DNA from: Aquimonas sp.
GTDB lineage: Bacteria; Pseudomonadota; Gammaproteobacteria; Xanthomonadales; Xanthomonadaceae
Direction of reading: 5' to 3'
Length of the DNA: 64,000 nt
Assembly (NCBI GenBank): GCA_035440755.1
Contig: DAORND010000008.1
Location: forward strand, 1,796 to 65,795
The notes below the pieces were generated by a model, which was not told where the DNA came from, made no database searches, and saw only the letters and a list, made by a program, of their open reading frames with translations. Shown in pieces: positions 9,969 through 26,821 of this stretch. Numbering within the stretch: position 1 is the first letter of the stretch; each line of letters opens with the position of its first letter. The translations under genes were made by a program, and so were the position numbers.

Positions 9969-10346
9969 TCAGCCCGGTCTTGTCGGCAAGCCTTCGTTGC
10001 ACCAGGCGATCATGCCTCCATCAAGGTTGATCAACGTTGCGTCACTACGTTCGCTTCGCAGCCTGGCGATGGCGCGTTGCGAACGCATGCCGCTTCGACA
10101 AACCACCAACAGCTCTCTGGTATCGGCGGGAATTCCCGCGCTTTTCAGTGCGTTCCAGCCATAGGCGTCAACGTCACCGAGCGGCACGTGCTTGGCCTGC
10201 GCAATCATGCCGCCGGCGACTTCGTTGGCTTCACGAACATCGATGGCGGCGACACCGCGCGCGATCAGCTGTTCGGCCTCGCGTGGCCCCACGCCGCCCG
10301 CCTGACCGGAAAACACCTGCTTCAACCAGTCCATCGGATTGGTCAT
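9969..10346 (-). CDS. Single-domain rhodanese (sulfurtransferase)
   Basis: IDVRE..E, active-site loop VCRSGMRS, NLDGGMIAW; ATG at 10346 overlaps the upstream stop. Confidence 0.92.
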   Translation of the reverse strand: MTNPMDWLKQVFSGQAGGVGPREAEQLIARGVAAIDVREANEVAGGMIAQAKHVPLGDVDAYGWNALKSAGIPADTRELLVVCRSGMRSQRAIARLRSERSDATLINLDGGMIAWCNEGLPTRPG

Positions 10347-10693
10347 GTCTTGCTTCCTCCCCCACAGTAGATGCGATGCAGTACGGCAATGATGTCGTGG
10401 ACCGGACCATCGGCCAGCGAATAGAAAATGGTCTGCGCGCTGCGTCGGGTTCTCACCAGTCCCTCTTCGCGCAACACGGCCAGGTGCTGCGAGAGGGCCG
10501 ATTGCGACAGATCCATGCCCGCGTTGATGTCGCCCACCGCTTGCTCGCCATCCGCCAGCATGCAAAGGATCATCAGGCGACGGTCGTTGGCAATGGCCTT
10601 CAGCAGACGCGAAGCGTCGCTGGCGTGGCCGCGCATTTCTGCTGCTTCGGAGGCTACCAGCGCGCGCGAGCGCTCAATCGATTCGACAGTCAT
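10343..10693 (-). CDS. ArsR/SmtB family persulfide-sensing repressor (BigR/SqrR/HlyU type)
   Basis: LLKAIANDRRLMILCML (Cys in helix 2), SQSALSQHLAVLREEGLV, C-terminal LHRIYC (second Cys): the two-Cys pattern of BigR/SqrR. Confidence 0.9.
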   Translation of the reverse strand: MTVESIERSRALVASEAAEMRGHASDASRLLKAIANDRRLMILCMLADGEQAVGDINAGMDLSQSALSQHLAVLREEGLVRTRRSAQTIFYSLADGPVHDIIAVLHRIYCGGGSKT

Positions 10694-10700
10694 GGCGGAC

Positions 10701-11090
10701 TCAGCGCGTAGTAACCGGATGACCGCGTTCGGTCCACGCGGTGATGCCACCGGCCATTGAGCGCACCTTGCTGAAACCCATCTGTTGCAGCGCATCTGCA
10801 GCCAGCGCAGAGCGGCCACCGGTACGGCAATAGAGCGTGATCGCACGGTCTCGCAGTGCCAAGGCGGGATCGACGGCGCAGGCCATAGCGGGATGGGCCT
10901 CAACCTGAAACTCCAGCACGCCACGCGGAATATTGATCGCACCCGCGAGGTGTCCCATCTCGAACTCGGCCGGTTCGCGAACGTCAATCAGCACATCTTC
11001 GCGATGTTCCTCCGCCGCAAGGGCGTCGACACTTACTTCAGAGATTCGGGTCTTGGCGGCAGCGACTAGATCGCTTGCGGAAAGGGACAT
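10701..11090 (-). CDS. Single-domain rhodanese (sulfurtransferase)
   Basis: LIDVREPAEF..GHLAGAINIPRG, LYCRTGGRSALAA, SMAGGITAW; GAAGGAG RBS. Confidence 0.93.
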   Translation of the reverse strand: MSLSASDLVAAAKTRISEVSVDALAAEEHREDVLIDVREPAEFEMGHLAGAINIPRGVLEFQVEAHPAMACAVDPALALRDRAITLYCRTGGRSALAADALQQMGFSKVRSMAGGITAWTERGHPVTTR

Positions 11091-11106
11091 CGGAAGCTCT
11101 CCTTCA

Positions 11107-11143
11107 AATATGAGTTGACACTAATATAAGTGCAAACTAAATT
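11107..11143. promoter_or_regulatory. Overlapping divergent sigma70 promoters with shared palindromic operator
   Basis: + strand TTGACA(11115-20)-N17-TAAATT(11138-43); - strand TTGCAC(11135-30)-N17-CATATT(11112-07); 12/14 palindrome CACTAATATAAGTG at 11119-11132. Confidence 0.72.
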
Positions 11144-11323
11144 AGCGTGCATCAAGCATACTGCGTTCCAGCCGATTACTCTACGGCCCAAGCGGGATAT
11201 GGCTGCGCGGCACAGGTCGAGGTGCCCAGCCGGTCTGGTGAAATCGGCGTATATACAGCAGTGCTCGCCCCACCGGCAGGGGCGTGACACCTCATTTCGG
11301 CCGGGGAGAGGGAGATTTGTCAC

Positions 11324-12592
11324 ATGGCTAAGATCGTTGTACTGGGTGGCGGCATCGGCGGTACCAGCATGGCTTATGAGCTGCGCGCGGCGCTCGGCAA
11401 GGAACACAGCATTTCCGTCGTGGGTGATACCCCGCTGTTTTCGTTCACGCCGTCCAATCCCTGGGTGGCAGTCGGCTGGCGTAAGCCCAGCGACATTCAG
11501 GTCAATATCGGCCAATACCTGGCCAAGAAGGGCATTGCCTTCAATCCGGTCGGTGCGCAGGAACTGAAGCCTGCTGAGAACGCCATCATCCTGCGCGATG
11601 GGCACCGCATGGAGTATGACTACCTCGTCATCACGACCGGCCCACGCCTGGCGTTTGACGAAATTCCCGGCTTGGGCCCGGATGGCCATACGCACTCGGT
11701 ATGCACGACGCCGCACGCGTTGGAAGGCTGGATGGCCTACCAGGAGTTCGTGAAGAACCCCGGACCCATCGTCGTTGGTGCTGCACAGGGCGCAAGCTGC
11801 TTTGGTCCCGCCTACGAGTTCATCATGATCCTTGATGCGGATCTGCGTAAGCGCAAGATTCGCGACAAGGTGCCGATGACCTATGTCAGCAGTGAGCCCT
11901 ATGTCGGGCACATGGGTCTGGGCGGCGTCGGTGATTCCAAAGGCTTGCTCGAGGGAGAGTTCCGACAGCGCCATATCAAGTGGATCGTCAACTCGAAGAT
12001 CACCGAAGTGCGCGATGGCGAGATGGCCGTGCAGGAAATGGATGCCGACGGCAAGCCGTTGCGCGAGCACACCGTGCCGTTCAAATATTCGATGATTCTT
12101 CCCGCATTTACTGGCGTGGATGCCGTGCGCACGGCACCAGAGATGTGCAATCCGCGTGGTTTTGTCTTGATCGACAAGCACCAGCGCAATCCGAAGTATC
12201 CCAATGTCTACTCGGCCGGCGTGTGCGTCGCCATTCCTCCTGTGGAGCCGACACCTGTGCCGACGGGCGCGCCGAAGACGGGTTTCATGATCGAGTCGAT
12301 GGTGACTGCCATCGTTGACAACATCAAAGCGGAGTTGACTGGCAAGCCCGTCGAGGCGGTCGCCACTTGGAATGCCATCTGCTTGGCCGACATGGGCGAC
12401 ACCGGTGCTGCGTTCGTCGCGCTTCCGCAGATTCCGCCGCGCAACGTGACCTGGGCCAAGGTCGGCAAGTGGGTGCATCTGGCCAAGATCGCGTTCGAGA
12501 AATATTTCCTTTTCAAAGTGAAGTCCGGCAACAACGAGCCTGTGTACGAAAAATACGTGCTCAAGGCGCTGGGCATCATGCGTTTGAAGTGA
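11324..12592 (+). CDS. sqr: Sulfide:quinone oxidoreductase, type I (SqrA-like)
   Basis: GGGIGG FAD motif, FTPSNPW, SVCT, GASCFGPAYE, GVCVAIPP..PTPVPTGAPKTGFMIESM, CLADMGD; all three conserved cysteines present. Confidence 0.95.
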   Translation: MAKIVVLGGGIGGTSMAYELRAALGKEHSISVVGDTPLFSFTPSNPWVAVGWRKPSDIQVNIGQYLAKKGIAFNPVGAQELKPAENAIILRDGHRMEYDYLVITTGPRLAFDEIPGLGPDGHTHSVCTTPHALEGWMAYQEFVKNPGPIVVGAAQGASCFGPAYEFIMILDADLRKRKIRDKVPMTYVSSEPYVGHMGLGGVGDSKGLLEGEFRQRHIKWIVNSKITEVRDGEMAVQEMDADGKPLREHTVPFKYSMILPAFTGVDAVRTAPEMCNPRGFVLIDKHQRNPKYPNVYSAGVCVAIPPVEPTPVPTGAPKTGFMIESMVTAIVDNIKAELTGKPVEAVATWNAICLADMGDTGAAFVALPQIPPRNVTWAKVGKWVHLAKIAFEKYFLFKVKSGNNEPVYEKYVLKALGIMRLK

Positions 12593-12617
12593 TCCGTTCC
12601 TTTTCTGGAGACAATCG

Positions 12618-12821
12618 ATGAATCTTGATCGAGCCATTTTTGCCTTCGCTGGCGTGATGATCTTGGTGAGCCTGGCGCTGGGGCATTTCGTGTCGCCGTA
12701 CTGGCTACTGTTGACGGCCTTTGTGGGCTTGAACCTGCTGCAGTCGGCGTTCACCGGTTTTTGCCCGGCGGCCATGATTCTCGGCAAGTTCGGCGTCAAA
12801 GCCGGTTGCGCATTCAAGTAA
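12618..12821 (+). CDS. DUF2892 (YgaP-like) small inner-membrane protein
   Basis: MNLDRAIFAFAG..., two TM helices, conserved FTGFCP. Confidence 0.88.
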   Translation: MNLDRAIFAFAGVMILVSLALGHFVSPYWLLLTAFVGLNLLQSAFTGFCPAAMILGKFGVKAGCAFK

Positions 12822-12831
12822 GGACGACCTC

Positions 12832-13917
12832 ATGCAGATGCGAACCGAACTGGGTGTGCTGGCATTGGTCAGCGCACTGACTCTTGGCCTGACGGGTTGC
12901 GGTGGAGAATCCACGCCGACCGAAATCGTGGCGAGCGGCGAACTGCCGTTCTCCACCTTGACGGTTTCTCCGGTTTCCGCCCAACGCGAACGCATCTGGG
13001 ATGGCGTGATCGAAGCGGTGAACCAGGCCACCTTGTCTGCGCAGACAGGTGGCCGGGTCCGCGAGGTTCTAGTCGACGTCAACGATTATGTGAAGGCAGG
13101 AGATGTCATCCTGCGTTTTACCGACGTCGAGCAACAGTCTGCAATTCGTCAGGCGCAAGCCGCGTTGGCCGCGGCAAAAGCGGCGTTGGACGAGGCGGAA
13201 TCCGATTTCAAGCGGATCAGCGAGATCTTTGGACGGCAGTTGGTTTCGAAAGCGCAGTTGGATCAGGCGACGGCGCGCCGTGACGCCGCCAAGGCGCAGC
13301 ATGAGTCCGCGCAAGCCGCCGTGCGCGCTGCCAACGAGCAGGTTGACTACACCGTCGTCCGCGCGCCGTATTCTGGCATCGTCACCCAGCGCCACGTTGA
13401 AGTAGGCGAGGCAGTGAATCCGGGTCAGCCGTTGATCTCGGGTTTGTCGCTGGACAAGCTCCGCGTCAACGTGCAAATACCGCAGAGCGACATGGCGTCC
13501 ATACGCGAGCACGCCAAAGCCTCCCTGCTACTGGCAGATGGCAAGCGCATCGACGCAGAACAGGTGATCGTGTTTCCGTATGCAGACCCAACGACGCATA
13601 CCTTCAGCGTGCGCTTGGAGCTGCCGCAGGCGGAAACCGGTCTGCAACCGGGGATGACTGCCAAGGCGGCATTTGTAATCGGTGCCTCCGAGCGACTCTT
13701 GGTGCCTGAATCCGCATTGGTTCGACGCAGTGAGGTCACTGCCGTTTACGTGGTCAGCGAGGGCAAAGTCAGTTTGCGTCAGATTCGTCTGGGGCACCGT
13801 TTTGGCAATGAAATCGAGGTGTTGGCAGGTCTTTCTGCGGGCGACGCGGTCGCCACCGATCCGGTAGCCGCGGGTGTCTACCTCTCCCGCATGCACGCCC
13901 GGGAGTTGGCGCAATGA
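12832..13917 (+). CDS. RND efflux periplasmic adaptor (MFP), lipoprotein
   Basis: Lipobox LTGC, lipoyl halves (SAQTGGRV..V.V...DYVKAG; VRAPYSGIV), alpha-helical hairpin, GLQPGM. Confidence 0.95.
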   Translation: MQMRTELGVLALVSALTLGLTGCGGESTPTEIVASGELPFSTLTVSPVSAQRERIWDGVIEAVNQATLSAQTGGRVREVLVDVNDYVKAGDVILRFTDVEQQSAIRQAQAALAAAKAALDEAESDFKRISEIFGRQLVSKAQLDQATARRDAAKAQHESAQAAVRAANEQVDYTVVRAPYSGIVTQRHVEVGEAVNPGQPLISGLSLDKLRVNVQIPQSDMASIREHAKASLLLADGKRIDAEQVIVFPYADPTTHTFSVRLELPQAETGLQPGMTAKAAFVIGASERLLVPESALVRRSEVTAVYVVSEGKVSLRQIRLGHRFGNEIEVLAGLSAGDAVATDPVAAGVYLSRMHARELAQ

Positions 13918-16900
13918 GCGAGCGCGACGGCGCGCCTGCGATGGGCATTTCCGGCCGTCTTGCGGCGGCATTTCAGGCCAATCCGCTGACGCCCATCCTG
14001 GCGATTGCGGGTCTCCTTCTCGGTATGGTTGCGGTGATGATCACGCCGCGCGAGGAAGAGCCGCAGATCGATGTGACCATGGCCAACGTCACCGTGCCGT
14101 TTCCGGGAGCGCCGGTTGATGATGTTGAGAACCTGATCAGTGTCCCACTGGAACAGGTGCTTTCGGAGATTGATGGCGTAAAACACGTCTACTCGGTATC
14201 GCGCCCTGGTGTGTCGATGACCACGGTCGAGTTTGATGTGGGCGTGCCACGCGCAGATGCATTGGTGCGGCTGTACAACCAGATCTATTCGAATCTGGAC
14301 TGGTCGCCGCAGGGACTGGGCGTTGGTCAGCCCCTGGTGCGCCCGATGGGTATTGATGACGTGCCGGTCATGGGTCTGACCTTGTGGACCGACGATCCAG
14401 CACGCGGTGCAACGGACGTGGCGGAAGTTGCGCACACTCTTGAGGCCGAATTGAAACGCATCCCAGGAACGCGCGATGTGTATACGATCGGCGCACCCGA
14501 CCGTGCCGTGATTGTTGAGCTGGACGCCACCAAACTGGCCTCCTACGGTATGGACGTTGCCGACCTCTCCAACGCCTTGCTGGCCAGCAATGTGGTCTCT
14601 CAGGCAGGCGACCGGATCGGCCCAGAAGGACAAGTTCCGGTGACTGGGGGGACCTATCTCGCGGATGCGCGTCAGGTTGCCGAGCTGGTCATCGGCTTGC
14701 GGGATGGCAAACCCCTGTTTCTGTCGGATGTGGCGACCGTGCGGCGCGGCGCGGACATGCCAACGCAATATGTGTGGCATGGCGTACCCGCGGGTCAGCA
14801 TGGGCCTCAACAGGGCATCGCGCCGGCGGTGACCATTGCTGTCGCCAAGAAGCCGGGTGCCAATGCAGCCGACATCACCAAGGCCATCGAACACCGTATC
14901 GAGATCTTGCGTGGGAGTGTCATTCCAGAGGGCGTGGAAGTTACCGTCACGCGGGACTACGGCAAGACCGCGAACGACAAGGCGATCAAGCTGATCCAGA
15001 AATTGGTGTTCGCGACGATGGCGGTGGTCTTGTTGGTGCTGTTTGCGCTGGGCTGGCGCGAAGCCATCGTGGTGGGTGCGGCGGTCATCATCACCCTAGC
15101 GCTGACCTTGTTCGCCAGTTGGGCGATGGGCTTCACGATCAATCGCGTATCACTTTTTGCTCTGATCTTCTCCATCGGTATCTTGGTTGACGATGCCATT
15201 GTGGTGGTGGAGAACATCCATCGGCATATGGCAAAAGGCGGTCGAACCTTGTTCGAGGCTATCCCTCCGGCGGTCGATGAGGTCGGCAGTCCGACCATCC
15301 TGGCGACGTTCACCGTGATCGCTGCCCTGTTGCCAATGGCTTTCGTCACCGGATTGATGGGGCCCTATATGCGGCCGATCCCGATCAATGCCTCGGTGGG
15401 CATGCTGCTATCGCTGGCGGTGGCATTGATCGTGACGCCCTGGCTGTCCTTGAAGCTGCTGTCGCGCCACCTTGGCGAGCATGCACAGGGCACATCCGAT
15501 GGTCATGGTGCGGGCATCGCGGCGCGACTGCATGGCGTTTTTGATCGCATCATGCGGCCCTTCCTCGACCGCCAACGTGGTGGCCGACGTCGAAACTGGT
15601 TGTGGGCGGGTATCGGTGTGGCACTGGTGCTTTCTGCCGGGATGGCAGTGGTGCAGTGGGTCGTGCTGAAAATGCTGCCCTTCGACAACAAGTCGGAATT
15701 CCAGGTCGTGGTCGACATGCCCGAAGGCAGCACGCTGGAGCGCACGAATGCGTTGCTTCAGGAACTGGCCGGAGTGGTCGCCGAACTGCCAGAAGTGAGT
15801 GATTATCAGGGCTACGCGGGAACCTCCGGACCGGTCAATTTCAATGGCCTCGTTCGCCAGTACTACCTGCGTCAGGGTCCCATCGTCGCCGACCTGCAAG
15901 TCAATCTGGTCGACAAGCATGATCGTGATCGCAAGAGTCACGAGATCGCCCGCGCGGTGCGTCCACAGCTCGCTGCAATCGGCAAGCAGTACGGCGCATC
16001 CGTCAAAGTCGTCGAGGTTCCGCCCGGACCGCCAGTTCTGTCTCCGCTGGTCGCGGAAATCTATGGGTCGGATCAGGCCACGGCACGCGCCATGGCGCGT
16101 GAGCTGGTCGGCAAGTTCGAGGCGACCGAGGGCTTGGTGGACATCGATACCACGGTCGAGTCGGAATCAGCGCGCGATCTGGTGCTGGTGGACCGTGCGC
16201 GTGCAGCCCAGATGGGCGTCAGTCAGGCGGCCATTGCGCAGGCCTTGCGGACCGGCTTGTCCGGCAATGACGCGACCTACCTGCGAGACGGCGCTTCGAA
16301 GTATCCCGTGCCGGTGCGCTTGCGCTTGCCTGCCGGTGATCAAGCCAGCATGGATCAATTGCTGGCGCTTCGAGTTCGCACTCAGGACGGGCGACTGATC
16401 CCGCTGTCCGAAGTCGTTACGGTGCAGCGCGTCACCTGGGAGAATGCGATCTATCACAAGGACCTGCTGCCGGTCGTATACGTCATGGCAGACGAGGCGG
16501 GTGCGTTGGATAGCCCTCTCTATGGCATGTTTGACGTGGTCGGTCAGTTGGGTGACGAGATGCTCGCTGGCTACGGCATCAAGCAGTACTTCATTGCTCA
16601 GCCGGAGTCCACGGCGGAGTTCGGCATCAAATGGGACGGCGAGTGGCAGATCACCTATGAAACGTTCCGCGACATGGGAATCGCCTATGGCGTGGGCATG
16701 GTGCTGATCTATCTGCTGGTGGTGGCGCAGTTCCGCAGCTATGTCGTTCCACTGATCATCATGGCGCCGATTCCGCTCACCGTGATTGGCGTGATGCCCG
16801 GCCACGCCTTGCTCGGTGCGCAATTCACCGCGACCAGCATGATCGGCATGATCGCGTTGGCGGGAATCATCGTGCGCAACTCGATATTGCTGGTGGACTT

Positions 16901-17162
16901 CATCAACAGCGAGCTGGCGGCGGGTCGTCGCCTTGACGACGCAGTGATCGACGCCTGTGCCGTCCGCGCGCAGCCGATTGCTCTAACGGCGCTGGCGGCG
17001 ATGCTCGGTGCGTTGTTCATCCTTGATGACCCCATTTTCAATGGCCTCGCCATTGCGCTGATCTTCGGCATCCTGGTGAGCACGGTTCTGACCCTGGTCG
17101 TGATCCCCTTGCTCTACTACGTGTTTCTCAATCGTCGCCAGCCCGGCGAGGCGCAGCCATGA
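13914..17162 (+). CDS. RND efflux permease (AcrB/AcrD/AcrF superfamily)
   Basis: 1082 aa; TM4 GILVDDAIVVVENI, TM10 GIIVRNSILLVDF, TM11 RAQPIALTA proton-relay residues; ATGA overlap with the MFP. Confidence 0.97.
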   Translation: MSERDGAPAMGISGRLAAAFQANPLTPILAIAGLLLGMVAVMITPREEEPQIDVTMANVTVPFPGAPVDDVENLISVPLEQVLSEIDGVKHVYSVSRPGVSMTTVEFDVGVPRADALVRLYNQIYSNLDWSPQGLGVGQPLVRPMGIDDVPVMGLTLWTDDPARGATDVAEVAHTLEAELKRIPGTRDVYTIGAPDRAVIVELDATKLASYGMDVADLSNALLASNVVSQAGDRIGPEGQVPVTGGTYLADARQVAELVIGLRDGKPLFLSDVATVRRGADMPTQYVWHGVPAGQHGPQQGIAPAVTIAVAKKPGANAADITKAIEHRIEILRGSVIPEGVEVTVTRDYGKTANDKAIKLIQKLVFATMAVVLLVLFALGWREAIVVGAAVIITLALTLFASWAMGFTINRVSLFALIFSIGILVDDAIVVVENIHRHMAKGGRTLFEAIPPAVDEVGSPTILATFTVIAALLPMAFVTGLMGPYMRPIPINASVGMLLSLAVALIVTPWLSLKLLSRHLGEHAQGTSDGHGAGIAARLHGVFDRIMRPFLDRQRGGRRRNWLWAGIGVALVLSAGMAVVQWVVLKMLPFDNKSEFQVVVDMPEGSTLERTNALLQELAGVVAELPEVSDYQGYAGTSGPVNFNGLVRQYYLRQGPIVADLQVNLVDKHDRDRKSHEIARAVRPQLAAIGKQYGASVKVVEVPPGPPVLSPLVAEIYGSDQATARAMARELVGKFEATEGLVDIDTTVESESARDLVLVDRARAAQMGVSQAAIAQALRTGLSGNDATYLRDGASKYPVPVRLRLPAGDQASMDQLLALRVRTQDGRLIPLSEVVTVQRVTWENAIYHKDLLPVVYVMADEAGALDSPLYGMFDVVGQLGDEMLAGYGIKQYFIAQPESTAEFGIKWDGEWQITYETFRDMGIAYGVGMVLIYLLVVAQFRSYVVPLIIMAPIPLTVIGVMPGHALLGAQFTATSMIGMIALAGIIVRNSILLVDFINSELAAGRRLDDAVIDACAVRAQPIALTALAAMLGALFILDDPIFNGLAIALIFGILVSTVLTLVVIPLLYYVFLNRRQPGEAQP

Positions 17163-17620
17163 CTGATACCGACTCACTGATCATTGCCTGTCCGCATTGT
17201 CACGGACTCAACCGTTTGCCGCAGGCACGCCTGAAGGATGCGCCACACTGCGGCAAGTGCGGCGCGACGATTTTCTCGGGCAAACCGTTCGAGCTCGACG
17301 CCAGCAATTTCGAAGTTCATGTGGCACGTTCGCAGTTGCCCATCTTGGTCGACTTCTGGGCGCCGTGGTGTGGTCCCTGTCGATTGATGGCGCCTGCCTT
17401 CGCGCAAGCTGCCTCGCAGTTGGAACCCCAGTTCCATCTGGCCAAGGTGGATACCGAAGCGCAGCCGATGCTGGGGCAGCGCTTTGGCATTCGCAGCATT
17501 CCCACCTTGGCACTGTTTCACAACGGAACCGAGATCGGACGTCAGTCTGGTGCCTTGCCGCTAGGTGAAATCGTGCGCTTCGCGCGCACCCAGTTCATGA
17601 ACTACGTGGCGGGTCTGTAG
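17159..17620 (+). CDS. trxC: Thioredoxin 2 (zinc-finger thioredoxin)
   Basis: CPHC...CGKC zinc site and WAPWCGPC active site, IRSIPTL. Confidence 0.93.
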   Translation: MTDTDSLIIACPHCHGLNRLPQARLKDAPHCGKCGATIFSGKPFELDASNFEVHVARSQLPILVDFWAPWCGPCRLMAPAFAQAASQLEPQFHLAKVDTEAQPMLGQRFGIRSIPTLALFHNGTEIGRQSGALPLGEIVRFARTQFMNYVAGL

Positions 17621-17622
17621 CC

Positions 17623-18078
17623 ATGTCGGACGCCCGCTTTTCATTGACCGTCGAGCAGGAATCGGACTACGTCTTTCGAGTCCGTTTTGATGACACAGAC
17701 ATCCCCGATCTGCTGACCGACGAACCAGAGCCGCTCGGTGGTGGCAGTGGCCCCAATCCCTCGCGCATGCTGGTTGCGGCGGTCGCCAATTGCATGAGCG
17801 CGAGCCTGCTGTTCTCGCTGCGCAAGTTCAAGAATACGCCGGGCACCCTGGTCACCAAGGCGACCGCACATCTGGGCCGCAGTCCCGAAGGACGCCTGCG
17901 CGTCGAGCGAATCGACGCCGAAATCGCGTTGCCCGAAATGGCGGGCAGCTACGCACAACTCGAACGCATTCTTGGACAGTTCGAACAGTTTTGCGTCGTG
18001 ACAGAAAGCGTGCGCAATGGCGTGGCCGTGAACGTCCGCGTCGTCGATCCAACCGGTGTCGTCCTGCATGGCGAGTGA
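17623..18078 (+). CDS. OsmC/Ohr family protein
   Basis: DEPEPLGGGSGPNP..LVAAVANC...FCVVTESV, two-Cys OsmC pattern. Confidence 0.9.
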   Translation: MSDARFSLTVEQESDYVFRVRFDDTDIPDLLTDEPEPLGGGSGPNPSRMLVAAVANCMSASLLFSLRKFKNTPGTLVTKATAHLGRSPEGRLRVERIDAEIALPEMAGSYAQLERILGQFEQFCVVTESVRNGVAVNVRVVDPTGVVLHGE

Positions 18079-18113
18079 GTTCGCCACCGAGTTTTTCTGA
18101 TGGAGCTACACCA

Positions 18114-19097
18114 ATGAAATCTCTTGTCATTGCCTTGAGTCTGCTGATGGCAGGCTCCGACGCCCACGCCCAAGAGGCGGCAAACCCGGATGCCGCCAGT
18201 GCCGCAAAAGCGCAAGCGGCGATCAAGGACCTGGGCCAATCCCTGCGCGGTGCGTTGGTCGCCAAGATGCAGTCGGAAGGCCCGGTGGCGGCGGTCAATT
18301 TCTGCCACGACGAAGCCCCGCTCATCGCCTCCCAGGTCGCCGAGCGTCATCAGGTGCAGATTGGACGCACGGCGGTGCGCCATCGCAGCCCGAGCAATGC
18401 CCCCAGCGAATGGCAACAAGCGGCGCTGGCGGAATTTGCCGCCAAGGTGGCAGAGGGCGCTCCGGCGGCTGGAATGACCTCGTCAAGTACGGTTGATGTC
18501 AACGGTGAAAGTCGTTTCCGCTTTGTGCAGAGCATCCCGACCGAGGCACCCTGCCTGGCCTGCCACGGTGACACTGTCGCGCCACCGATCAAGGCCGAAA
18601 TCGACAAGCATTACCCGCAAGACACGGCGACGGGCTTCAAGGAAGGTGACCTGCGTGGCATGTTCTGGGTGGAGTTCCCGATGACTCCCGCCGCCACGCC
18701 CGTGTCACAGAACCCGCCGGATCAACGCGCCCCTATCGTAATGAGCGAAGCGCAACGTGTGTCCCTGCGACTGGAAATGCGCGGACGCATGGAAACGCTG
18801 CAAGGCGTCATGGCCGCGCTGGCCTCGGGCGATTGGTCTGAAGTCGCCAAGCGCTCGGAAGAGGGCACACGTGGGCAGCATCGCGGTGTCGACTTCCGCT
18901 CGGCATTGCCTCAGGAATGGTTTGGCATGGCGCGCCCCATGCACGGCGAGTTCGCGGCCATCCAGCACGAGGCCGAGGGTCAGAAGCGCGTCGACGTCGC
19001 CCTGCAACATCTGGCCAAGGCAGGTCAGTACTGCACGTCCTGTCATGCGACTTTCCGCCCCGTGACGCCTAGCGAGAGCGCTGTCGCGCAGCAATGA
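18114..19097 (+). CDS. Secreted diheme c-type cytochrome: DUF3365/Tll0287-like domain fused to a cytochrome c'-like helical domain
   Basis: Signal peptide MKSLVIALSLL; AVNFCHDEAP, RTAVRHRSPSNAP, CLACHG, YPQDTATGFKEGDLRG (DUF3365 pattern); Pro-rich linker; second domain ends CTSCHATFR. Confidence 0.8.
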   Translation: MKSLVIALSLLMAGSDAHAQEAANPDAASAAKAQAAIKDLGQSLRGALVAKMQSEGPVAAVNFCHDEAPLIASQVAERHQVQIGRTAVRHRSPSNAPSEWQQAALAEFAAKVAEGAPAAGMTSSSTVDVNGESRFRFVQSIPTEAPCLACHGDTVAPPIKAEIDKHYPQDTATGFKEGDLRGMFWVEFPMTPAATPVSQNPPDQRAPIVMSEAQRVSLRLEMRGRMETLQGVMAALASGDWSEVAKRSEEGTRGQHRGVDFRSALPQEWFGMARPMHGEFAAIQHEAEGQKRVDVALQHLAKAGQYCTSCHATFRPVTPSESAVAQQ

Positions 19098-19732
19098 CGC
19101 TGAACCACGCGAACCCGCGTGAGTTCTGGGACTCGCGCTTTGCGGAAATCGACTTTCTCTACGGTCAGCTGCCCAACGCGTGGCTGTACGAATGTGCCAT
19201 CAGCCTGCCACCACACGGCGGGCGCGTGCTGTGTGCCGCCGAGGGCCAAGGTCGCAATGCCCTGTGGTTGGCGAAGCAGGGATGCGAAGTCCACGTGGTG
19301 GATATTTCTGCCGTGGCCTTGGAGCACCTTGAGCGGCGCGCACGACAACTCGGACTGCCGATCACCTGCGAACAGGCCGATCTGGCCAATTGGATCGCCG
19401 AGCCCGAGAGTTACGACGCGGCCTTGCTGATCTTCGCCCACTTCCCGCCAGCGGTACGGAAGCATGTGCACACGCAAGTCCAACGCGCCCTCAAACCGAG
19501 AGGTTGGCTGGTGTTGGAAGCGTTTTCCCCAGAGCAACTCGGATTGACTTCCGGCGGACCGCGAAATCCTGCCTGGCTCTACAGCGCTGAGATGATCGCC
19601 GGGGATTTCGCAGGGATGCAGATCGCTTCGCTGAGCCAGATCCGGATCCGCCTGGATGAAGGCCCCGGACATCAGGGCGAAGCCGCCGTGGTCCGCTTGC
19701 TTGCAAGACGAATCGAAGAGCGCGCGGAGTAA
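19094..19732 (+). CDS. Class I SAM-dependent methyltransferase (TehB-like)
   Basis: FWDSRF...YGQLPNAWL, RVLCAAEGQGRNALWLA, VDIS; ATGA overlap with the cytochrome gene. Confidence 0.9.
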   Translation: MTLNHANPREFWDSRFAEIDFLYGQLPNAWLYECAISLPPHGGRVLCAAEGQGRNALWLAKQGCEVHVVDISAVALEHLERRARQLGLPITCEQADLANWIAEPESYDAALLIFAHFPPAVRKHVHTQVQRALKPRGWLVLEAFSPEQLGLTSGGPRNPAWLYSAEMIAGDFAGMQIASLSQIRIRLDEGPGHQGEAAVVRLLARRIEERAE

Positions 19733-19881
19733 CAGCGCTCCTTCTGCGGCAAGGATCACCTGCGCGCGGCGCGGACGGGGCGACCTGACGCTTGTCGGCT
19801 CCACTCTACCGACCATCTGGCTGGACTGGAGTCGCTGACGGCGCGGGCATACAGTGGGATGGTCAAAAAAGGGGGAAGTGC

Positions 19882-20445
19882 ATGCGCAACTTGTGCCACC
19901 AGTCAAGATTCAGCGGTCTTCCTGCATTTAGTTCGGTTTGGCAGCGCGGCGTCACCCTGTTGGAGTTGATGGTCGCTGTTGCTATTGTGGGCATTACCCT
20001 GTCCCTTGCGTTACCAAGTTTCAATGACTCGATCGAACGGAATCGCGTCGTATCGACCGTCAACGAAATGGTGGGTGCCATGAATCTTGCCCGTTCGGAA
20101 GCAATCCGCACGAACCGGACTGCCACCTTTTGTGCCAGCCTTGATCAAGCGACCTGCGGTGGGACATGGAGTGATGGCTGGATCGCTATCGCTGATCTCG
20201 ATGGGGATGCGGTCATGGATGTCTTGCGCACTGGCACTGTCAGTGACAAGGACGAAGTTACGGCTGCTGCGACTCAGATCGACTTTAATCAGCGCGGTCT
20301 GAAGACAGTCCCGGTGGGTGCGGCCACTATCGCTGTTCAGCCAGCAGGTTGTGCGGTTGGAAAGCCGCATCGTCGCGTCGTTTCCGTGACTGCTACCGGC
20401 GGTGCATTTGTCGCCAATCATGGCACTGACGCCAATTGTATTTGA
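19882..20445 (+). CDS. fimT: Type IV minor pilin FimT/FimU (GspH-like)
   Basis: Prepilin cleavage QRG|VTLLELMVAV; LNLARSEA-like MNLARSEAIR. Confidence 0.85.
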   Translation: MRNLCHQSRFSGLPAFSSVWQRGVTLLELMVAVAIVGITLSLALPSFNDSIERNRVVSTVNEMVGAMNLARSEAIRTNRTATFCASLDQATCGGTWSDGWIAIADLDGDAVMDVLRTGTVSDKDEVTAAATQIDFNQRGLKTVPVGAATIAVQPAGCAVGKPHRRVVSVTATGGAFVANHGTDANCI

Positions 20446-20457
20446 TGGGTTCTTTAT

Positions 20458-20985
20458 ATGACTACGAAATGGCAAGCTGATACTGAACGTGGTGTATCGC
20501 TCATCGAGGTAATGGTGGCAGTGTTGGTGCTTTCAATTGGACTGCTGGGAATGGCTTCGCTTATGGGGGTCTCGTTGCGCAATACCCAGAGTGCCAACTA
20601 CCGGACTCAGGCGGCTAATCTTGCATACGAGTACATTGACACGGCGCGAGCCTATATCGCCATTGGCGGTGGAGACAAGCTTGGATACATCCTGCAGCCA
20701 GCGTGGTCGGCCGCCAATTGCGATATTGCGACCGCGCCTCTCTACAATTGCGGTGGTGGCTTGGACTCCTTGAATTGCGACATCCGACGATTAGGGGACC
20801 ATGTGTGCCGGGTGTTGCCCGGAGGGCGTCTGCGGGCCACTGCTGTGCCGCTTGGTGGAAATCCGGATCGCCTGCAGTTGACGGTCGACATCTGCTGGAC
20901 AGATGACCGATCAGGCGCGGGAGCAGTGACTGAGGCCTGCAACAGCGATTCGGAAACCTTGTTCACGTTGGTGACCGAGCTATGA
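20458..20985 (+). CDS. pilV: Type IV minor pilin PilV
   Basis: ERG|VSLIEVMVAVLVLSIGLLGMA, SANYRTQA, terminal ICWTDDR. Confidence 0.92.
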   Translation: MTTKWQADTERGVSLIEVMVAVLVLSIGLLGMASLMGVSLRNTQSANYRTQAANLAYEYIDTARAYIAIGGGDKLGYILQPAWSAANCDIATAPLYNCGGGLDSLNCDIRRLGDHVCRVLPGGRLRATAVPLGGNPDRLQLTVDICWTDDRSGAGAVTEACNSDSETLFTLVTEL

Positions 20986-22181
20986 GTATTGTGAATGCGA
21001 TGAGACGCCGCATTCGCGCCTCCCAGCAAGGTCTGTCATTGGTCGAACTGATGGTCGCCCTCGCAATCGGTGTTCTACTTTTGTTGGGTCTGGTTGAGAT
21101 ATTCGGCTCGACAAGAGCTGCCTTTGGTGCGGCTGAGGGTTCTTCTAGAGCACAGGAAGCAGGAAGATTCGCTACAGAGTTTCTCAAGAGAGATTTGCGG
21201 GTCACAGGCCACGTTGGCTGCCTGAACGAACGTGCCTATCTGTCGGCTGCGGGTGGCCTGTTTGTGCACATGAGTGCTGGCGCTGTTGCGGCGGCACCCT
21301 ATGCGTTCCGTGTCGATTATCCGATTCAGGCCTATGAGTACGCGGGTACAGGGCCGGGAGATGCAGTCGATCTTTCGGCGGGGGCAACCGCTGCCACAGT
21401 GAGTGGTGAATGGAGTCCGGCATTGCCGACCGAGCTTGACGCCTTGCTCAACGAGGCAGTGGTTGGAAGTGATGTGCTTGTCGTTCGTTTTTTGAGTCCA
21501 GAGTTCGTTGATTCGGTTATTGTTGATATAGCCAATGCGCAATTTCAGATTACAGATCTGGCCGATCAGCCATTCTTTACATTGGATAGTGTCTACGGCG
21601 TTACAAATTGTCGAAAACTGAGCCTGGTGCAAGCTAGGACGGCCCCCGTGGCGGGCATTGTGAATGTTGGTATTAGCGGATTGAATGCGGTGGGCTGGAG
21701 TGCGCAGTTCGAAGACGGTTATGCACCACCCGGGACGAGTGTGCACAACTACAATTACGTTGTGTACTACGCCGGGATAGATGGTGCGTCTGGCCAGCCA
21801 TCTCTTAAGCGGCGAAACCTCGATCCATCGAGTGCAACGTTCCTCGGGCCATCAGAAACTTTGGTTGAAGGGGTGGAGTCGCTTCAATTCGTGTTCGGTG
21901 TGGACACTAGCGCGCCTCAAGATGATCAGGTGGATGTCTATCACACGGCAGACGGGATTGCCGGACTCCCGGTTGGTGCGGATGACCCTGCGCGGTGGAG
22001 GCGGGTGGCAACCGCCCGAATGGGGGTGATTACCCGAAGCCCGAATTCATCATCTGCCGCTCGCGACGCTGCCGCATCACAAATTCGGTTGGCGGATTCT
22101 GTGTTCACGTTCGCCGATGATGGGCGGGTCCGCCAGTCACACGAAACACTCGTTTCCATGCGAAATCGGAACAGGAATTGA
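20982..22181 (+). CDS. pilW: Type IV minor pilin PilW
   Basis: QQG|LSLVELMVALAIG, AQEAGRFA..FL.RDLR..G, LVEGVESLQFVFGVD, C-terminal MRNR. Confidence 0.92.
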   Translation: MSIVNAMRRRIRASQQGLSLVELMVALAIGVLLLLGLVEIFGSTRAAFGAAEGSSRAQEAGRFATEFLKRDLRVTGHVGCLNERAYLSAAGGLFVHMSAGAVAAAPYAFRVDYPIQAYEYAGTGPGDAVDLSAGATAATVSGEWSPALPTELDALLNEAVVGSDVLVVRFLSPEFVDSVIVDIANAQFQITDLADQPFFTLDSVYGVTNCRKLSLVQARTAPVAGIVNVGISGLNAVGWSAQFEDGYAPPGTSVHNYNYVVYYAGIDGASGQPSLKRRNLDPSSATFLGPSETLVEGVESLQFVFGVDTSAPQDDQVDVYHTADGIAGLPVGADDPARWRRVATARMGVITRSPNSSSAARDAAASQIRLADSVFTFADDGRVRQSHETLVSMRNRNRN

Positions 22182-22182
22182 C

Positions 22183-22659
22183 ATGAACCAATTCAATCAC
22201 TTTCCACAGAGACAACAGCGCGGTGCCGCATTGTTTGTGTCGATGATGATTCTAATACTGCTGACCATGCTCGCTCTGTCAGCATCGCAAGTTACTAGTC
22301 TGCAGGAGAAAATGGCTTCTGCGTATTGGGCGGACGCGCGTGCGTTCGAGCGTTCCGAAGCCGCGCTTCGAGCAGAGCAGCGCGCGCTAAGAACCGCTGT
22401 TGAGCAGGGTTTGTGTGTTTCGGATTCTGCCAGCTTACCAACTTGGCTTGGTAGCGCCCCGGCGGCTGGCGAGGCTCATGTATTGGCGATCCGCCATGAG
22501 GCGGCACGCGGCAGCGGCCTTGAGTCCGAAATCGTTGCCGGCAGTGCATTGGGCGCGTTGGATTGCGCGGTGTTCAAGATAAGTGTGGCAGACGCCGATA
22601 CCGTGGCCCCAGCTGACGCCAGCGCTTGGTCGGTTGTTCAGTCTGTCTTCGTACCATAG
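22183..22659 (+). CDS. pilX: Type IV minor pilin PilX
   Basis: QRG|AALFVSMMILILLTML (no Glu5, typical of PilX), LQEKMASAY.D..RAFE.SEAALR. Confidence 0.9.
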   Translation: MNQFNHFPQRQQRGAALFVSMMILILLTMLALSASQVTSLQEKMASAYWADARAFERSEAALRAEQRALRTAVEQGLCVSDSASLPTWLGSAPAAGEAHVLAIRHEAARGSGLESEIVAGSALGALDCAVFKISVADADTVAPADASAWSVVQSVFVP

Positions 22660-22668
22660 ATTTAGCTG

Positions 22669-25600
22669 TTGAGAAGGAGTTTGGCTATGTTCGCCATGCA
22701 ATCCGTTTCAGTGAAGCGCGCGCTGGTGGCGCTCGTCGCCGCCCTGACGATGGCGTCCGGGATGTCAGCGAGAGCGGCAATTGATGTTTCGCAAAGCCCG
22801 TTGTTTCTTCCTTCGCCGGTTGATCCAAATATCCTGTTCGTGTTGGACGACTCTGGATCGATGTACTGGGAATCTATTCCAGATAGTGCCGTCTTGTTCA
22901 TGTTCCCCAGACCAAACGGTGTATATGGGAACGCCAGTGAATATAGCAACCAGGTAGCCTCAGTAAATTATGCCTCAGGGAATGCGAATGAGGCCGTTTC
23001 TGCTTTGGCTTTTCGTTCGTCTTCCTATAACCCTTTGTATTATAATCCGGCTATTACATATCGGCCTTGGGCAAACGCCGATGGGTCGCTGTGGGCGGAT
23101 TCGAATCCACTGGCCGCCCGATATCATCCGGCGCGAGGTGGTCCGGGAACCCTGAATCTGACGACAAATGTTACTCAGAACGCACAATGGGTGTATACGA
23201 ACAATGCCGGGAGTGCGTGGGGGGCTTGGGCTGATAGAAGTTATTACCCGGCGACTTATGCACGGTTCCTAGGTGGGGCAGTTTGGAATGCGGCAAACTA
23301 TCAACGCGTCGAAATTAAGGTAGCAAATGCTCCTTTCACTGGTGACGGTCGCGAGAACAGAACAGATGTTGGTTGCGTGGCAGGCAGCTGTAGCTACACC
23401 GCAGAAATTCAGAATTTCGCAAACTGGTTTACTTACTACAGGTCGCGGCATTTGGCGGCAGCGGCAGGTGTTGGTCGCGCTTTCGCATCCCAGTCGGAGA
23501 AAATGCGCGTTGGATTTGGTGCGATCAATAAGTCCGGTACGTCTGTGGATGGAGTGGCCAATACTGAAGTGGTAATGAGCGGCGTGAGGCAATTTTCCGG
23601 CGCGGATCGAACCTCATTTTTTAATACGCTTTATGGCAGTAGTTGGGAGCCTTGGGGTACACCTTTGCGCTGGGCACTTGACAATGCGGGTCAGTATTTT
23701 TCACGCTCGGACAATCCTGGCCCATGGGGAAAAATACCTGGCACGAACGATGCGAGTAGTCATTTGGCCTGCAGGCAGAGCTACACGATCTTGATGACAG
23801 ACGGTTATTGGAATGGCGCCGCGGCGGAAACAGCAGGAGCTCAGGCCGATACTGACTCAACGGGTGGTCCAACCATTCTTGGTCCATCTGGTTCGTTCAC
23901 ATTCGACGCGGTGACTCCGTTTCGCGACGGTCGCGGCAACACGCTTGCGGATGTCGCTATGTATTATTGGAAGCGAGATCTACGCGGTACTATAGATAAC
24001 TTGGTCCCGACATCAACGATCAATCCTGCGTTCTGGCAGCACATGGTGACGTTCGGTATCGGTTTTGGTGTTGCGGGCACGGTTTCACCAACAACAGCGT
24101 TCGATGCGCTCGCCAATTCACCGGCGATCAACATCAATTGGCCGAACCCTACAGGTGGTACCGCCCAGGTGGATGATTTGCTGCATGCTGCGATTAATTC
24201 GCGCGGTGGTTTCTTCTCTGCCCGTGAGCCAGACGTTTTTGCGTCGGAATTGTCGAGTGTGTTGCAGGAAATTGTTGCTCGCTCGCTTGCTTCAAATGGT
24301 GTGTCCGCTTCTGCGACAAGGCGTGATACCAGTTTCTTGGTGTATGTTCCGGAGTTTGACAGCGCGGATTGGACTGGCGATGTCAAGGCCTACAACTTGA
24401 ATTCGGATGGTAGTCTAGCGAGTGTCGCATGGTCGGTATCGGCTAAGTTCAATTCTGGTTCGCCGGTGGATCATTCCTCTCGCGATATTTATGTTGCCCT
24501 CCCCAGTGGATCGAGTTACGCCCTGTCCCCGTTTACGGTTTCTGGGCTCGGTGGGGCTACATCTGCAGAGGCACACTTGGGTATTGTTGCATCGGATATT
24601 ACAGCTTATGGCACTGGTATCACGGTGAGCGAAGTCATCGATTATGTGCGCGGCAGCCATGCCAATGAGGGAACGAATGGTGGGCCTTTGCGAAATCGCT
24701 TGCGAGCATTTGGTGACATCATCGGTTCAAAGCCCGAAGTGATACGCGCCAATAGTTTCGGTTATGAGACCTTGCCTGCTGCTGAGGGAGGCGGGAGTGA
24801 TGACTCGATCTTCGGGACATACGCACACTTCTTGAAGCAGAAGCGCGCTAAGGATCCGGTTCTTTTCGTAGGTTCGAACGACGGCATGTTGCATGCGTTT
24901 GATGCGACGGAGACTGGCGGCGACTTGCTTTTCAGTGTAATGCCGAACGGGTCGTTAGGGTTGGTTAAGGAGTTACCAAAGAAGACGTATGCCCATCATT
25001 TCGGAGTGGACGGATCGCCGGCGCAGTTTGACGTAAGACTCGGTGGCTCATGGAAGACAATTCTGCTTACGCCGATGGGTGCGGGTGGGCGGTCGGTATT
25101 TGCATTGGATGTGACAGATGCCGGCTCAAGTTTCTCCATGAGCAGCTTCTTGTGGGAGTTCAAGAACGCTAATCTCGGATATACGCTTGGTGATCCAAAG
25201 GCTGCCTATTACAGAGGTAACCAGTGGTATGTCACTGTGCCGAACGGCGCTGGTGCGAATGATCATCAGGCGCGGTTGTTTTTCTTGGATCCATCGGATG
25301 GATCGATTGAACATAATGTTGTGCTGGGAAGTTCGGGCACAGCTTCCGATCCCAACGGTTTGATGTCGGCTGTTCCTGTAGACAGTGATTTTGATGGTCG
25401 AGCGGATACGGTTTATGCGGCCGATTTGCACGGCAACGTTTGGAAGGTTGTCATCAGTGCCGCGGGAGTGCCGACGGTTGCCTATGGCGGTCCGTTCTAT
25501 GTAGCCAAAGATGCTAGTGGGAATCGCCAGCCAATTACTGGATCGCTTAGTGCGGCGGTCCACCACCTGAGTGGTCAGATGGTGTTTTTTGGAACGGGCA

Positions 25601-26289: not shown

Positions 26290-26337
26290 TGTTGTAATCG
26301 CGCCTGCCGCTTGGCGCGCGCACCGGCCGGAGTTGGT

Positions 26338-26745
26338 ATGAAATCCCTTAATCGTGGTTTTACGTTGGTTGAACTTATGATCGTCGTTGCAGTGATTGCT
26401 GTAATTACGATGATTGCGGTGCCTGCATACAACGAACAGGTTCGAAAGTCTCGGAGAGGGTTGGCGAAGAGTGATCTCTTGGAGTTAACTCAGTGCGCAG
26501 AGCGTTTCCACACGACCAATGGCACTTATGTCGGCTTTGATGCTGCCGCAGTGTGCAACGTTAACGGCAGAGATGACGCAAACACCTATGACTTTGCCGC
26601 CGCCGCGATTACTAGGACGACTTTTACCTTGAGCGCTACCGCGCAAGGTGGGCAGACCGATGATAAGTGCGGTGACCTCGGCATCAATCAGGCCAACGTT
26701 CGCACGCATTCGGCAGGAACCGCGGCGGATCGCTGCTGGGAGTAG
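26338..26745 (+). CDS. pilE: Type IV minor pilin PilE
   Basis: NRG|FTLVELMIVVAVIA, PAYNEQVRKSRR..AK..L, ERF.T.NGTY, C-terminal C...CW. Confidence 0.93.
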   Translation: MKSLNRGFTLVELMIVVAVIAVITMIAVPAYNEQVRKSRRGLAKSDLLELTQCAERFHTTNGTYVGFDAAAVCNVNGRDDANTYDFAAAAITRTTFTLSATAQGGQTDDKCGDLGINQANVRTHSAGTAADRCWE

Positions 26746-26772
26746 CAGCGGTTTCATTGGTGAGCGAGTTAT

Positions 26773-26802
26773 CGAAGGGCGAGCCGGTCGGTTCGCCCTT
26801 CG
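26773..26802. terminator. GC-rich hairpin between convergent pilE and icmF
   Basis: CGAAGGGCGAGCC-GGTC-GGTTCGCCCTTCG; no long U tract. Confidence 0.55.
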
Positions 26803-26821
26803 GCACTTTGAGCGTTGCGAC

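Follow-up and report, generated by a model that had tools for sequence, protein, structure and literature searches.

It is not yet clear how bacteria dispose of the insoluble, reactive sulfur that arises from sulfide oxidation or by what route this sulfur gets across the outer membrane. The question is raised in compact form by a gene cluster of Aquimonas sp. (assembly GCA_035440755.1), which lies at positions 9969 to 19732 of a 64,000-nucleotide stretch of contig DAORND010000008.1 (the whole stretch is referred to here as the window). In about 8 kb, this locus brings together a sensor, an operator, a sulfide:quinone oxidoreductase (SQR), a small cysteine protein, a pump, and a thiol-repair pair. 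A sequence-only reading of the DNA had proposed the cluster as a candidate for an undescribed system that bypasses persulfide dioxygenase (PDO). Our analysis leads to a different answer: the locus is not a new pathway around PDO. It is probably a sulfide and persulfide stress module under local control, acting alongside the PDO-TauE pair and Sox system that other parts of the genome encode, not replacing them. Within this module, a DUF2892 membrane protein, an RND periplasmic adaptor (MFP), and an RND permease may together form the missing exporter that carries zero-valent sulfur or polysulfide made by SQR or Sox from the periplasm across the outer membrane, here wired to a persulfide sensor. 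We give this reading a probability of about one in three. If true, it would explain external sulfur deposition and sulfide survival in many proteobacteria.

Conservation of the sqr locus in relatives

The locus consists of two divergent arms, one encoding two rhodaneses (rhd1 and rhd2) and an ArsR-family regulator and the other encoding, in order, SQR, DUF2892, MFP, RND, TrxC, an OsmC-like protein, a diheme protein (cytochrome), and a methyltransferase. We collected the SQR-orthologue loci of 20 relatives, 18 of which were informative. A regulator facing sqr-DUF2892-MFP-RND was kept in 16 of the 18, down to 65% SQR identity and in several families, an arrangement far beyond chance. Counted gene by gene, the regulator (adjoining sqr), DUF2892, MFP, and RND were each present in 16 loci, rhd1 in 13, trxC in 13 (after the pump), osmC in 12, the diheme protein in 6 (at varying positions in the cluster), rhd2 in 4, and the methyltransferase in 3. 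The sequence-only reading had proposed a neighborhood search for the co-occurrence of the rightward genes. Co-occurrence was borne out for sqr, DUF2892, and RND, as well as for trxC and osmC; the cytochrome and the methyltransferase fall outside the conserved set. At the core stands a repressor, with a rhodanese, opposite type I sqr-DUF2892-MFP-RND, and trxC-osmC usually comes next.

The SQR matched the structures of A. ferrooxidans SQR (PDB 3sz0, 5.6e-152 over residues 2 to 422) and of Aquifex SQR (3hyv, 2.6e-114), and it is a predicted type I SQR. Its Cys127, Cys159, and Cys353 are presumably the equivalents of Cys128, Cys160, and Cys356. It is the sole close copy in the genome, and the DUF2892 gene is likewise single-copy. 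The DUF2892 product has two apparent hydrophobic helices, as read from its sequence, and its Cys49 (motif GFCP) was invariant in 59 of 59 homologues. The permease and its adaptor have the features of an HAE-type system, namely, an AcrB-family permease with 12 transmembrane segments and a cognate adaptor (ACR_tran and RND_mfp matches in Table 1). The permease fell into no curated RND subfamily (best NCBIfam multidrug scores of 458 and 380 bits against cut-offs of 1250), and its nearest solved pumps, MexK, MdtB, and TriC, scored 241 to 262 bits. The cluster holds no gene for an OEP-family outer-membrane factor, and four TolC-family genes lie elsewhere in the genome. In 4 of 80 related loci, the pump has a neighbor that, going by its N-terminal sequence only, is a putative TolC-like outer-membrane factor.

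The pump clade follows sulfur-oxidizer genomes

Seeding the search with the pump yielded at least 599 relatives among species-representative genomes, and the neighbors were counted in 48 loci with full flanks. These neighbors were found by tblastn with the window's own proteins, because unbiased clustering of open reading frames (ORFs) was partly disturbed by long antisense ORFs in GC-rich DNA. The nearest pump loci belonged to Lysobacterales/Lysobacteraceae (Luteimonas, Aerolutibacter, and Thermomonas). DUF2892 adjoined the pump in 27 of the 48 loci and did so in two orders, upstream of MFP or downstream of RND. A BigR-like gene adjoined it in 23 loci, sqr in 13, osmC in 9, and trxC in 7. Thus, the partners that the pump keeps most stably are DUF2892 and a regulator of the persulfide-sensor type, and SQR is a frequent but not an obligatory partner. 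In one locus from Candidatus Tenderia (L067:8118-8821), read by eye, genes for a TusA-like protein (CPxP motif) and a DsrE-like protein stand directly upstream of MFP-RND and constitute a putative further sulfur-trafficking link of the pump.

At the level of whole genomes, we examined 299 genomes drawn evenly across the class, with about one or two per family. Pump matches fell into two groups, with orthologues set apart at 1000 bits or more (50 to 64% identity; 79 genomes) and paralogues at about 780 to 910 bits. Type I SQR was present in 72 of the 299 genomes and SoxB in 113. The pump orthologue was found in 31 of the 49 genomes with both SQR and Sox, in 14 of the 23 with SQR and no Sox, in 27 of the 64 with Sox and no SQR, and in 7 of the 163 with neither SQR nor SoxB. 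Put differently, type I SQR or SoxB accompanies the pump in 72 of its 79 carriers (odds ratio of about 25), and 72 of the 136 genomes with SQR or SoxB carry the pump. The permease belongs to a distinct clade that follows sulfur-oxidizer genomes. Its presence almost only in SQR or Sox genomes, together with a persulfide sensor in many lineages, makes it a concrete candidate for the sulfur disposal step. Type I SQR and Sox act on inorganic sulfur in the periplasm, the compartment that RND pumps empty.

With coordinates read by eye, the orthologue adjoins sqr in only 1 of the 45 genomes that have both, and in 9 genomes it is 7 to 23 kb away from soxB. Of the 72 type I SQR genomes, 68 had a member of the wider pump family (at least about 40% identity), compared to 67 of the 227 others. 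Members of the paralogous clade (40 to 46% identity) lie about 3 kb from soxB in two genomes (G280:C36:6909-14687 and G109:C30:36515-44294) and adjoin SQR genes in two more (G190 and G218), so the sulfur link may extend to the wider pump family.

These data bear on what the pump might carry. A study of Azospira suillum PS suggested that its sulfide-responsive pump exports metal sulfides, metal-thiol complexes, or generic toxic compounds of sulfide stress, and several efflux pumps and iron-starvation responses were sulfide induced in that organism (Mehta-Kolte et al. 2017, mBio, PMC5358917). The heavy-metal models did find the proteins encoded here, with 162 bits for the CzcB/NccB-type adaptor model on MFP and 242 bits for the CusA/CzcA model on the pump, but these scores are far under the cut-offs of 319 and 701 bits, and the best solved relatives named above are of the HAE type. 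The motif in the fourth transmembrane segment, GILVDDAIVVVEN, which we take to be of the HAE type and not the heavy-metal type, argues in the same direction. Moreover, a general metal pump would not be expected to be so closely tied to DUF2892, persulfide sensors, SQR, and Sox. We consider export of metals or generic toxic compounds, in place of sulfur itself, unlikely.

Alternatively, the pump might handle an organic substrate, such as persulfidated low-molecular-weight thiols, organic polysulfanes, or damaged quinones and lipids, with DUF2892 serving as an independent sulfur carrier. Amphiphilic organic molecules are typical for HAE-type pumps, and the DUF2892 cysteines are predicted to face the cytoplasm. 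In Azospira, a separate DUF2892 gene was among the most sulfide-induced transcripts on its own (PMC5358917). Against this reading, DUF2892 stays beside the pump in two different gene orders. The association with SoxB and type I SQR, both periplasmic, also points to inorganic sulfur. An organic cargo appears quite improbable, and zero-valent sulfur or polysulfide is our best, if tentative, guess for the cargo.

Persulfide dioxygenase and Sox are encoded elsewhere in the genome

In agreement with the sequence-only reading, we found no PDO, TauE, or YeeE gene in the cluster or in the 64-kb window; all such matches in the genome lie on other contigs. From this absence, that reading had derived a route in which the sulfane sulfur made by SQR is exported, reduced, or methylated and not oxidized to sulfite, and it had named a search for pdo, tauE, and sox in the rest of the genome as a check. 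We ran this search, and all three were found on other contigs. Among 11 candidate MBL-fold proteins, one is a PDO (G000:C3:28897-29793), with matches to 9g8t (3e-107), 4ysk/4ysl (2e-98), and 4ysb (1e-31). We take these structures to be persulfide dioxygenases and 4ysk to be the Pseudomonas putida enzyme. The protein also scored 382 bits against the dioxygenase half of Blh. The genome encodes a predicted type II PDO outside the sqr operon, and the PDO that belongs to the canonical SQR-PDO pathway is present at the genome level. A TauE gene directly adjoins it, and a sigma-54-dependent activator is divergent to the pair (G000:C3:27555-30720). Contig C20 encodes SoxB (863 bits; cut-off, 550), and SoxA, SoxX, and SoxC also score over their curated cut-offs; our listing comprises these four proteins, the short SoxYZ genes being masked by spurious ORFs. 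The same Sox cluster (G000:C20:400-9700) also contains YeeE/YedE-like genes and a 359-amino-acid rhodanese-like protein, as read by eye.

We then compared the related sqr loci, fetched with 14 to 18 kb, by tblastn with the PDO and TauE of this genome. PDO was found in the same locus in 12 of the 18 relatives, including loci with trxC and osmC. A relative from another family (L021:5001-12907) carries sqr-DUF2892-MFP-RND-tauE-pdo-rhd on one strand, and in two other loci (L025 and L027) pdo comes after the gene for the regulator. In six relatives of the same genus, tauE-pdo (or a pdo cut by the end of the locus) lies a few kilobases past osmC, and in L018 two unrelated genes stand between osmC and tauE-pdo. 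No PDO lies in the locus of this strain or of its two nearest relatives (99% SQR identity), all three of which have the cytochrome and methyltransferase after osmC instead. The absence of PDO is thus a local rearrangement and not a property of the system.

A PDO-independent pathway would be in keeping with the absence of PDO, TauE, and YeeE from the cluster and window, with the position of TrxC and OsmC after the pump, where some relatives have tauE-pdo, and with the weak similarity of the methyltransferase to thiol and halide methyltransferases. These points are outweighed by the type II PDO with TauE and the SoxXAB/C proteins of the same genome and by the PDO in relatives' loci, including those that also have trxC and osmC. 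In addition, the methyltransferase occurs in only 3 and the cytochrome in only 6 of the 18 loci, and the methyltransferase is not of the MddH type. We regard such a pathway as very unlikely, and the claim that a PDO-free route replaces oxidation to sulfite fails.

With a sigma-54 activator at pdo-tauE and an ArsR-type regulator at sqr, the genome may have two sulfide/persulfide sensing systems that are independent of each other. The motif that we identify below as the predicted sqr operator is absent from the PDO-TauE site (G000:C3:27555-30720). A FisR-like activator was not found in the relatives' sqr loci, except for one unrelated match, which indicates that the control of PDO differs between lineages.

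A predicted dithiol repressor and its predicted operator

The regulator has an ArsR/SmtB winged-helix fold (HTH_5, Table 1; NCBIfam HTH_metalloreg, 88.3 bits; cut-off, 55). Its best PDB match was HlyU of Vibrio cholerae (5e-29), followed by SqrR (6.5e-22) and then YgaV and BigR (2e-18). Cys44 (ILCML) and Cys110 (IYC) line up with the cysteine pair of V. cholerae HlyU and occupy the two positions, in helix alpha2 and at the C-terminal end of alpha5, that mark the sensing cysteines of the BigR/SqrR/HlyU clade. The regulator scored 88.2 bits against the BigR equivalog model NF040642, under its curated cut-off of 155, and we therefore place it in the clade without giving it the name BigR or SqrR. 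It is a predicted dithiol ArsR repressor of the BigR/HlyU/SqrR/YgaV persulfide-sensor clade. In this respect, the claim that a persulfide-sensor-type repressor is in control finds support in the placement of the protein and in its aligned cysteine pair.

The region between the two arms contains a sole good sigma-70-like promoter, TTGACA-17-TAAATT (11115-11143). Between and over its two hexamers are a predicted operator, CTAATATAAG (11121-11130), and a second half-site, CTAAATTAG. Comparison of the intergenic regions of 16 loci revealed that the block TTGAC-N-CTAATAT(A/T)AG-N6-CTAAAT is common to genus- and family-level relatives, and in most genus-level relatives the first element is a perfect palindrome, CTAATATTAG. 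The operator-promoter motif is unique both within the window and across the 3.3-Mb assembly, which points to a dedicated local regulator for the sqr locus. Searching between the two arms for inverted repeats with exact seeds found none, since this strain has an imperfect palindrome. We also considered an SqrR-type operator. The published SqrR box, ATTC-N8-GAAT, does not occur in 11091-11323, even with one mismatch, and the other palindrome, CTAATAT(A/T)AG, is found instead, which rules this candidate out.

After the promoter, sqr has a leader of about 170 nucleotides (11150-11323). Neither this leader nor the rest of the cluster gave a credible Rfam match to a riboswitch or other known RNA. 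In this strain and in relatives, a CCxCC/CCGGC stretch of the leader could pair with the GGGAGG ribosome-binding region. Such anti-Shine-Dalgarno pairing was rejected, as the consensus structure folds weakly (-4.7 kcal/mol) and covariation lends it no support.

Comparison with known systems

The closest described counterpart is the operon Dsui_3440-3443 of Azospira suillum PS, which encodes an SQR, an RND pump, an adaptor, and a small unknown protein, is induced under H2S-oxidizing conditions, and shows a fitness effect in Bar-seq (PMC5358917). In gene content the two loci are alike, each combining SQR with a small protein and with an RND pump and adaptor. The Azospira operon differs in its gene order, and no trxC, osmC, cytochrome, or methyltransferase is described in it. 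Rhodocyclaceae loci with the pump studied here have the order mfp-rnd-DUF2892, one of them with a 29%-identical SQR. More broadly, a 2025 survey from the Dahl laboratory reported that sulfane-sulfur-responsive ArsR regulators often stand beside RND pump genes in many proteobacteria, and the neighborhood of Rhodobacter capsulatus sqrR is listed there as "RND transporter" (PMC12423496). The sequence-only reading had ranked the cluster as a candidate for an undescribed system. Given the SQR-RND link in Azospira (PMC5358917) and the RND genes beside sulfane-sulfur regulators (PMC12423496), this was overstated: the SQR-pump link is already published, and the locus is a variant of a partly described system.

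In R. capsulatus, as here, a two-cysteine ArsR repressor, SqrR, stands over sqr and a rhodanese. The regulator encoded here is nearer to HlyU than to SqrR, and its predicted operator is not the published SqrR box, for which the high-affinity in vitro operator was taken from the rcc1451 promoter. Furthermore, sqr of R. capsulatus is at a separate locus (rcc00785), whereas here it heads the pump operon. The BigR operon of Xylella and Agrobacterium resembles the locus in its persulfide-responsive ArsR repressor, its AT-rich palindromic operator over the promoter, and its sulfide detoxification genes; the regulator differs in falling short of the BigR equivalog cut-off (88 versus 155 bits).

Most relatives, with PDO and TauE within the locus, resemble the canonical SQR-PDO(-TauE/YeeE) pathway. 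In contrast, PDO-TauE of this strain is on another contig, by a sigma-54 activator, and the pump, DUF2892, TrxC, and OsmC are additional to that pathway. SQR-PDO operons of heterotrophs usually have type II SQR, and the SQR here is type I. Dual persulfide sensing by FisR and BigR has been reported in Acinetobacter baumannii (PMC7315123). The sigma-54 activator at pdo-tauE and the ArsR-type regulator at sqr may be likened to that pair, the likeness to FisR being one of position and domain type only.

A model for the locus

According to our model, the dithiol ArsR repressor would occupy the palindrome CTAATAT(A/T)AG inside the sqr promoter. Persulfide or polysulfide would then bridge its two cysteines, the repressor would be released, and both arms would be transcribed, as the homology to known persulfide sensors suggests. 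From the leftward arm, two rhodaneses and the repressor would be made, which may serve sulfane-sulfur traffic and reset of the sensor. The switch-off role of a rhodanese is modeled on R. capsulatus, in which the SqrR-regulated rhodanese shortens the sulfide response (PMC9995734). From the rightward arm, type I SQR would convert H2S to zero-valent sulfur at the membrane. DUF2892-MFP-RND, together with an outer-membrane factor encoded elsewhere, would remove zero-valent sulfur or polysulfide derived from SQR or Sox from the periplasm and the membrane, with DUF2892 as a cysteine-bearing accessory of the pump or a hand-over subunit. We infer that TrxC and the two-cysteine OsmC-like protein reduce protein persulfides, peroxides, or oxidized thiols in the cytoplasm. 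PDO-TauE and Sox, encoded elsewhere, would take the sulfur on to sulfite and sulfate. The diheme protein and the Slr1183-type methyltransferase would have been added in this lineage.

Several observations weigh against this model. The association with SQR and Sox could stem from a shared sulfur-oxidizer lifestyle and not from a shared pathway, and the genomes were counted with their kin and are not independent. No recognizable sulfur gene adjoins the pump in 19 of the 48 pump-seeded loci (about 40%); eight of these, L067 among them, were examined in detail and belong to Chromatiales-type and related gammaproteobacterial lineages. Going by the positive-inside rule, the cysteines of DUF2892 would lie on the cytoplasmic side, a poor fit with a periplasmic cargo. 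In Azospira, deletion of the whole operon left the rate of sulfide oxidation unchanged (PMC5358917). The regulator scores under the BigR threshold, and the control region lacks the SqrR box. Finally, our literature search found no study measuring the cargo of this pump, and the earlier description of its function as uncharacterized holds. The locus has value as a test bed for the question of pump export, as its compact set of genes could be transferred to a laboratory strain.

Gene layout and accessory genes

Gene calls were made from an ORF listing with translation and from Pfam and NCBIfam scans of the window. All 11 genes were recovered with the content and coordinates that the sequence-only reading had given them (Table 1). 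Three genes form the leftward arm, with rhd1 first, and eight the rightward arm, from sqr to the methyltransferase. The junctions of the rightward arm measure 25, 10, -4, -4, 2, 35, and -4 bp, as expected from the ATGA overlaps and gaps of 2 to 35 bp noted before; the MFP and RND genes overlap by ATGA, as do the rhd2 and regulator genes. A single divergent intergenic region of 233 bp separates the arms, consistent with the common promoter region that had been proposed. The conserved-cysteine character ascribed to the products was likewise confirmed, across relatives for DUF2892, OsmC, and the cytochrome and by the cysteines of SQR.

TABLE 1 Genes and other features of the sqr locus, in window positions
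Feature	Position	Strand	Description
rhd2	9969-10346	-	Single-domain rhodanese, 125 aa, loop CRSGMRS; Pfam Rhodanese 3e-09
ArsR-family dithiol regulator (predicted)	10343-10693	-	116 aa, Cys44 and Cys110; Pfam HTH_5 3e-15
rhd1	10701-11090	-	Single-domain rhodanese, 129 aa, loop CRTGGRS; Pfam Rhodanese 8e-20
Divergent control region	11091-11323		Promoter scan, cross-species motif comparison
sqr	11324-12592	+	Type I SQR (predicted), 422 aa, Cys127/Cys159/Cys353; Pfam Pyr_redox_2
DUF2892/YgaP-like membrane protein	12618-12821	+	67 aa; Pfam PF11127 7.7e-13
MFP (RND periplasmic adaptor)	12832-13917	+	Lipoprotein, lipobox LTGC; NCBIfam RND_mfp 234.5 bits (cut-off 94.9)
RND permease	13914-17162	+	1082 aa; Pfam ACR_tran 4e-154, whole length
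trxC (thioredoxin 2)	17159-17620	+	N-terminal Zn ribbon (2 x CxxC), WCGPC; NCBIfam TrxC equivalog 139.9 bits (cut-off 125)
osmC-like	17623-18078	+	151 aa, Cys57 and Cys124; Pfam OsmC 41.3 bits (threshold 27.5)
Hairpin and T-run	18069-18095	+	Terminator-like scan
Tll0287-like (sCache_heme, formerly DUF3365) diheme protein	18114-19097	+	Signal peptide, two CxxCH; PF11845 4.7e-22
Class I SAM methyltransferase, Slr1183 type	19094-19732	+	PDB 2kw5 1.3e-39

The OsmC-like protein has the OsmC fold and the two cysteines of the OsmC/Ohr thiol peroxidases, which were invariant in 24 of 24 homologues, and it scored under all NCBIfam cut-offs for OsmC and Ohr subfamilies. At the osmC stop codon, a 7-bp hairpin with a T-run marks the boundary of the conserved core and the variable tail. 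On its own, this hairpin is not significant, since shuffled sequence would be expected to give more terminator-like sites than the region has in total.

In the diheme protein, which is secreted, a Tll0287-like domain (Cys64, CLACH) is joined to a C-terminal helical domain with a CTSCH motif. It matched Tll0287 itself (PDB 5b82, 7.7e-11), and Cys64 and both CxxCH motifs were kept in 5 of 5 sequences. A domain with CxxCH and a candidate distal cysteine ligand is what characterizes the Tll0287-like/sCache_heme group, to which the protein appears to belong. A 2026 preprint assigned redox-type roles to stand-alone sCache_heme members with a distal cysteine and placed sCache_heme-cytochrome c fusions in Flavobacteria only, whereas the fused second CxxCH domain described here is in a Lysobacterales protein.

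The best match of the methyltransferase was Synechocystis Slr1183, a structural-genomics protein of unknown function (2kw5 in Table 1). It weakly matched thiol and halide methyltransferases (2e-4 to 5e-3), and its Pfam TPMT/TehB matches were weak. We considered whether it could be MddH, which is a UbiE-family (COG2226) protein (PMC11445057). The Slr1183-like character of the protein and a Pfam scan without a Ubie_methyltran match rule this out, and it belongs to neither the MddH (UbiE) nor the MddA family. The diheme protein and the methyltransferase are apparent lineage-specific accessories.

In-frame stops were seen in two relatives, in the pump gene of one (L024:2875-6114) and in both the pump (C59:1184-4435, TAA) and SQR (C366:2098-3363, TGA) genes of the other (G274). 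These could be gene decay or assembly errors. Past the operon, window positions 19792-27000 hold type IV pilus minor-pilin genes (GspH/FimT-like, with the N-methyl motif). The G+C content of this segment is 0.53 to 0.57, compared to about 0.60, and its first gene is 51 to 71% identical in the two closest relatives; it looks like a variable region.

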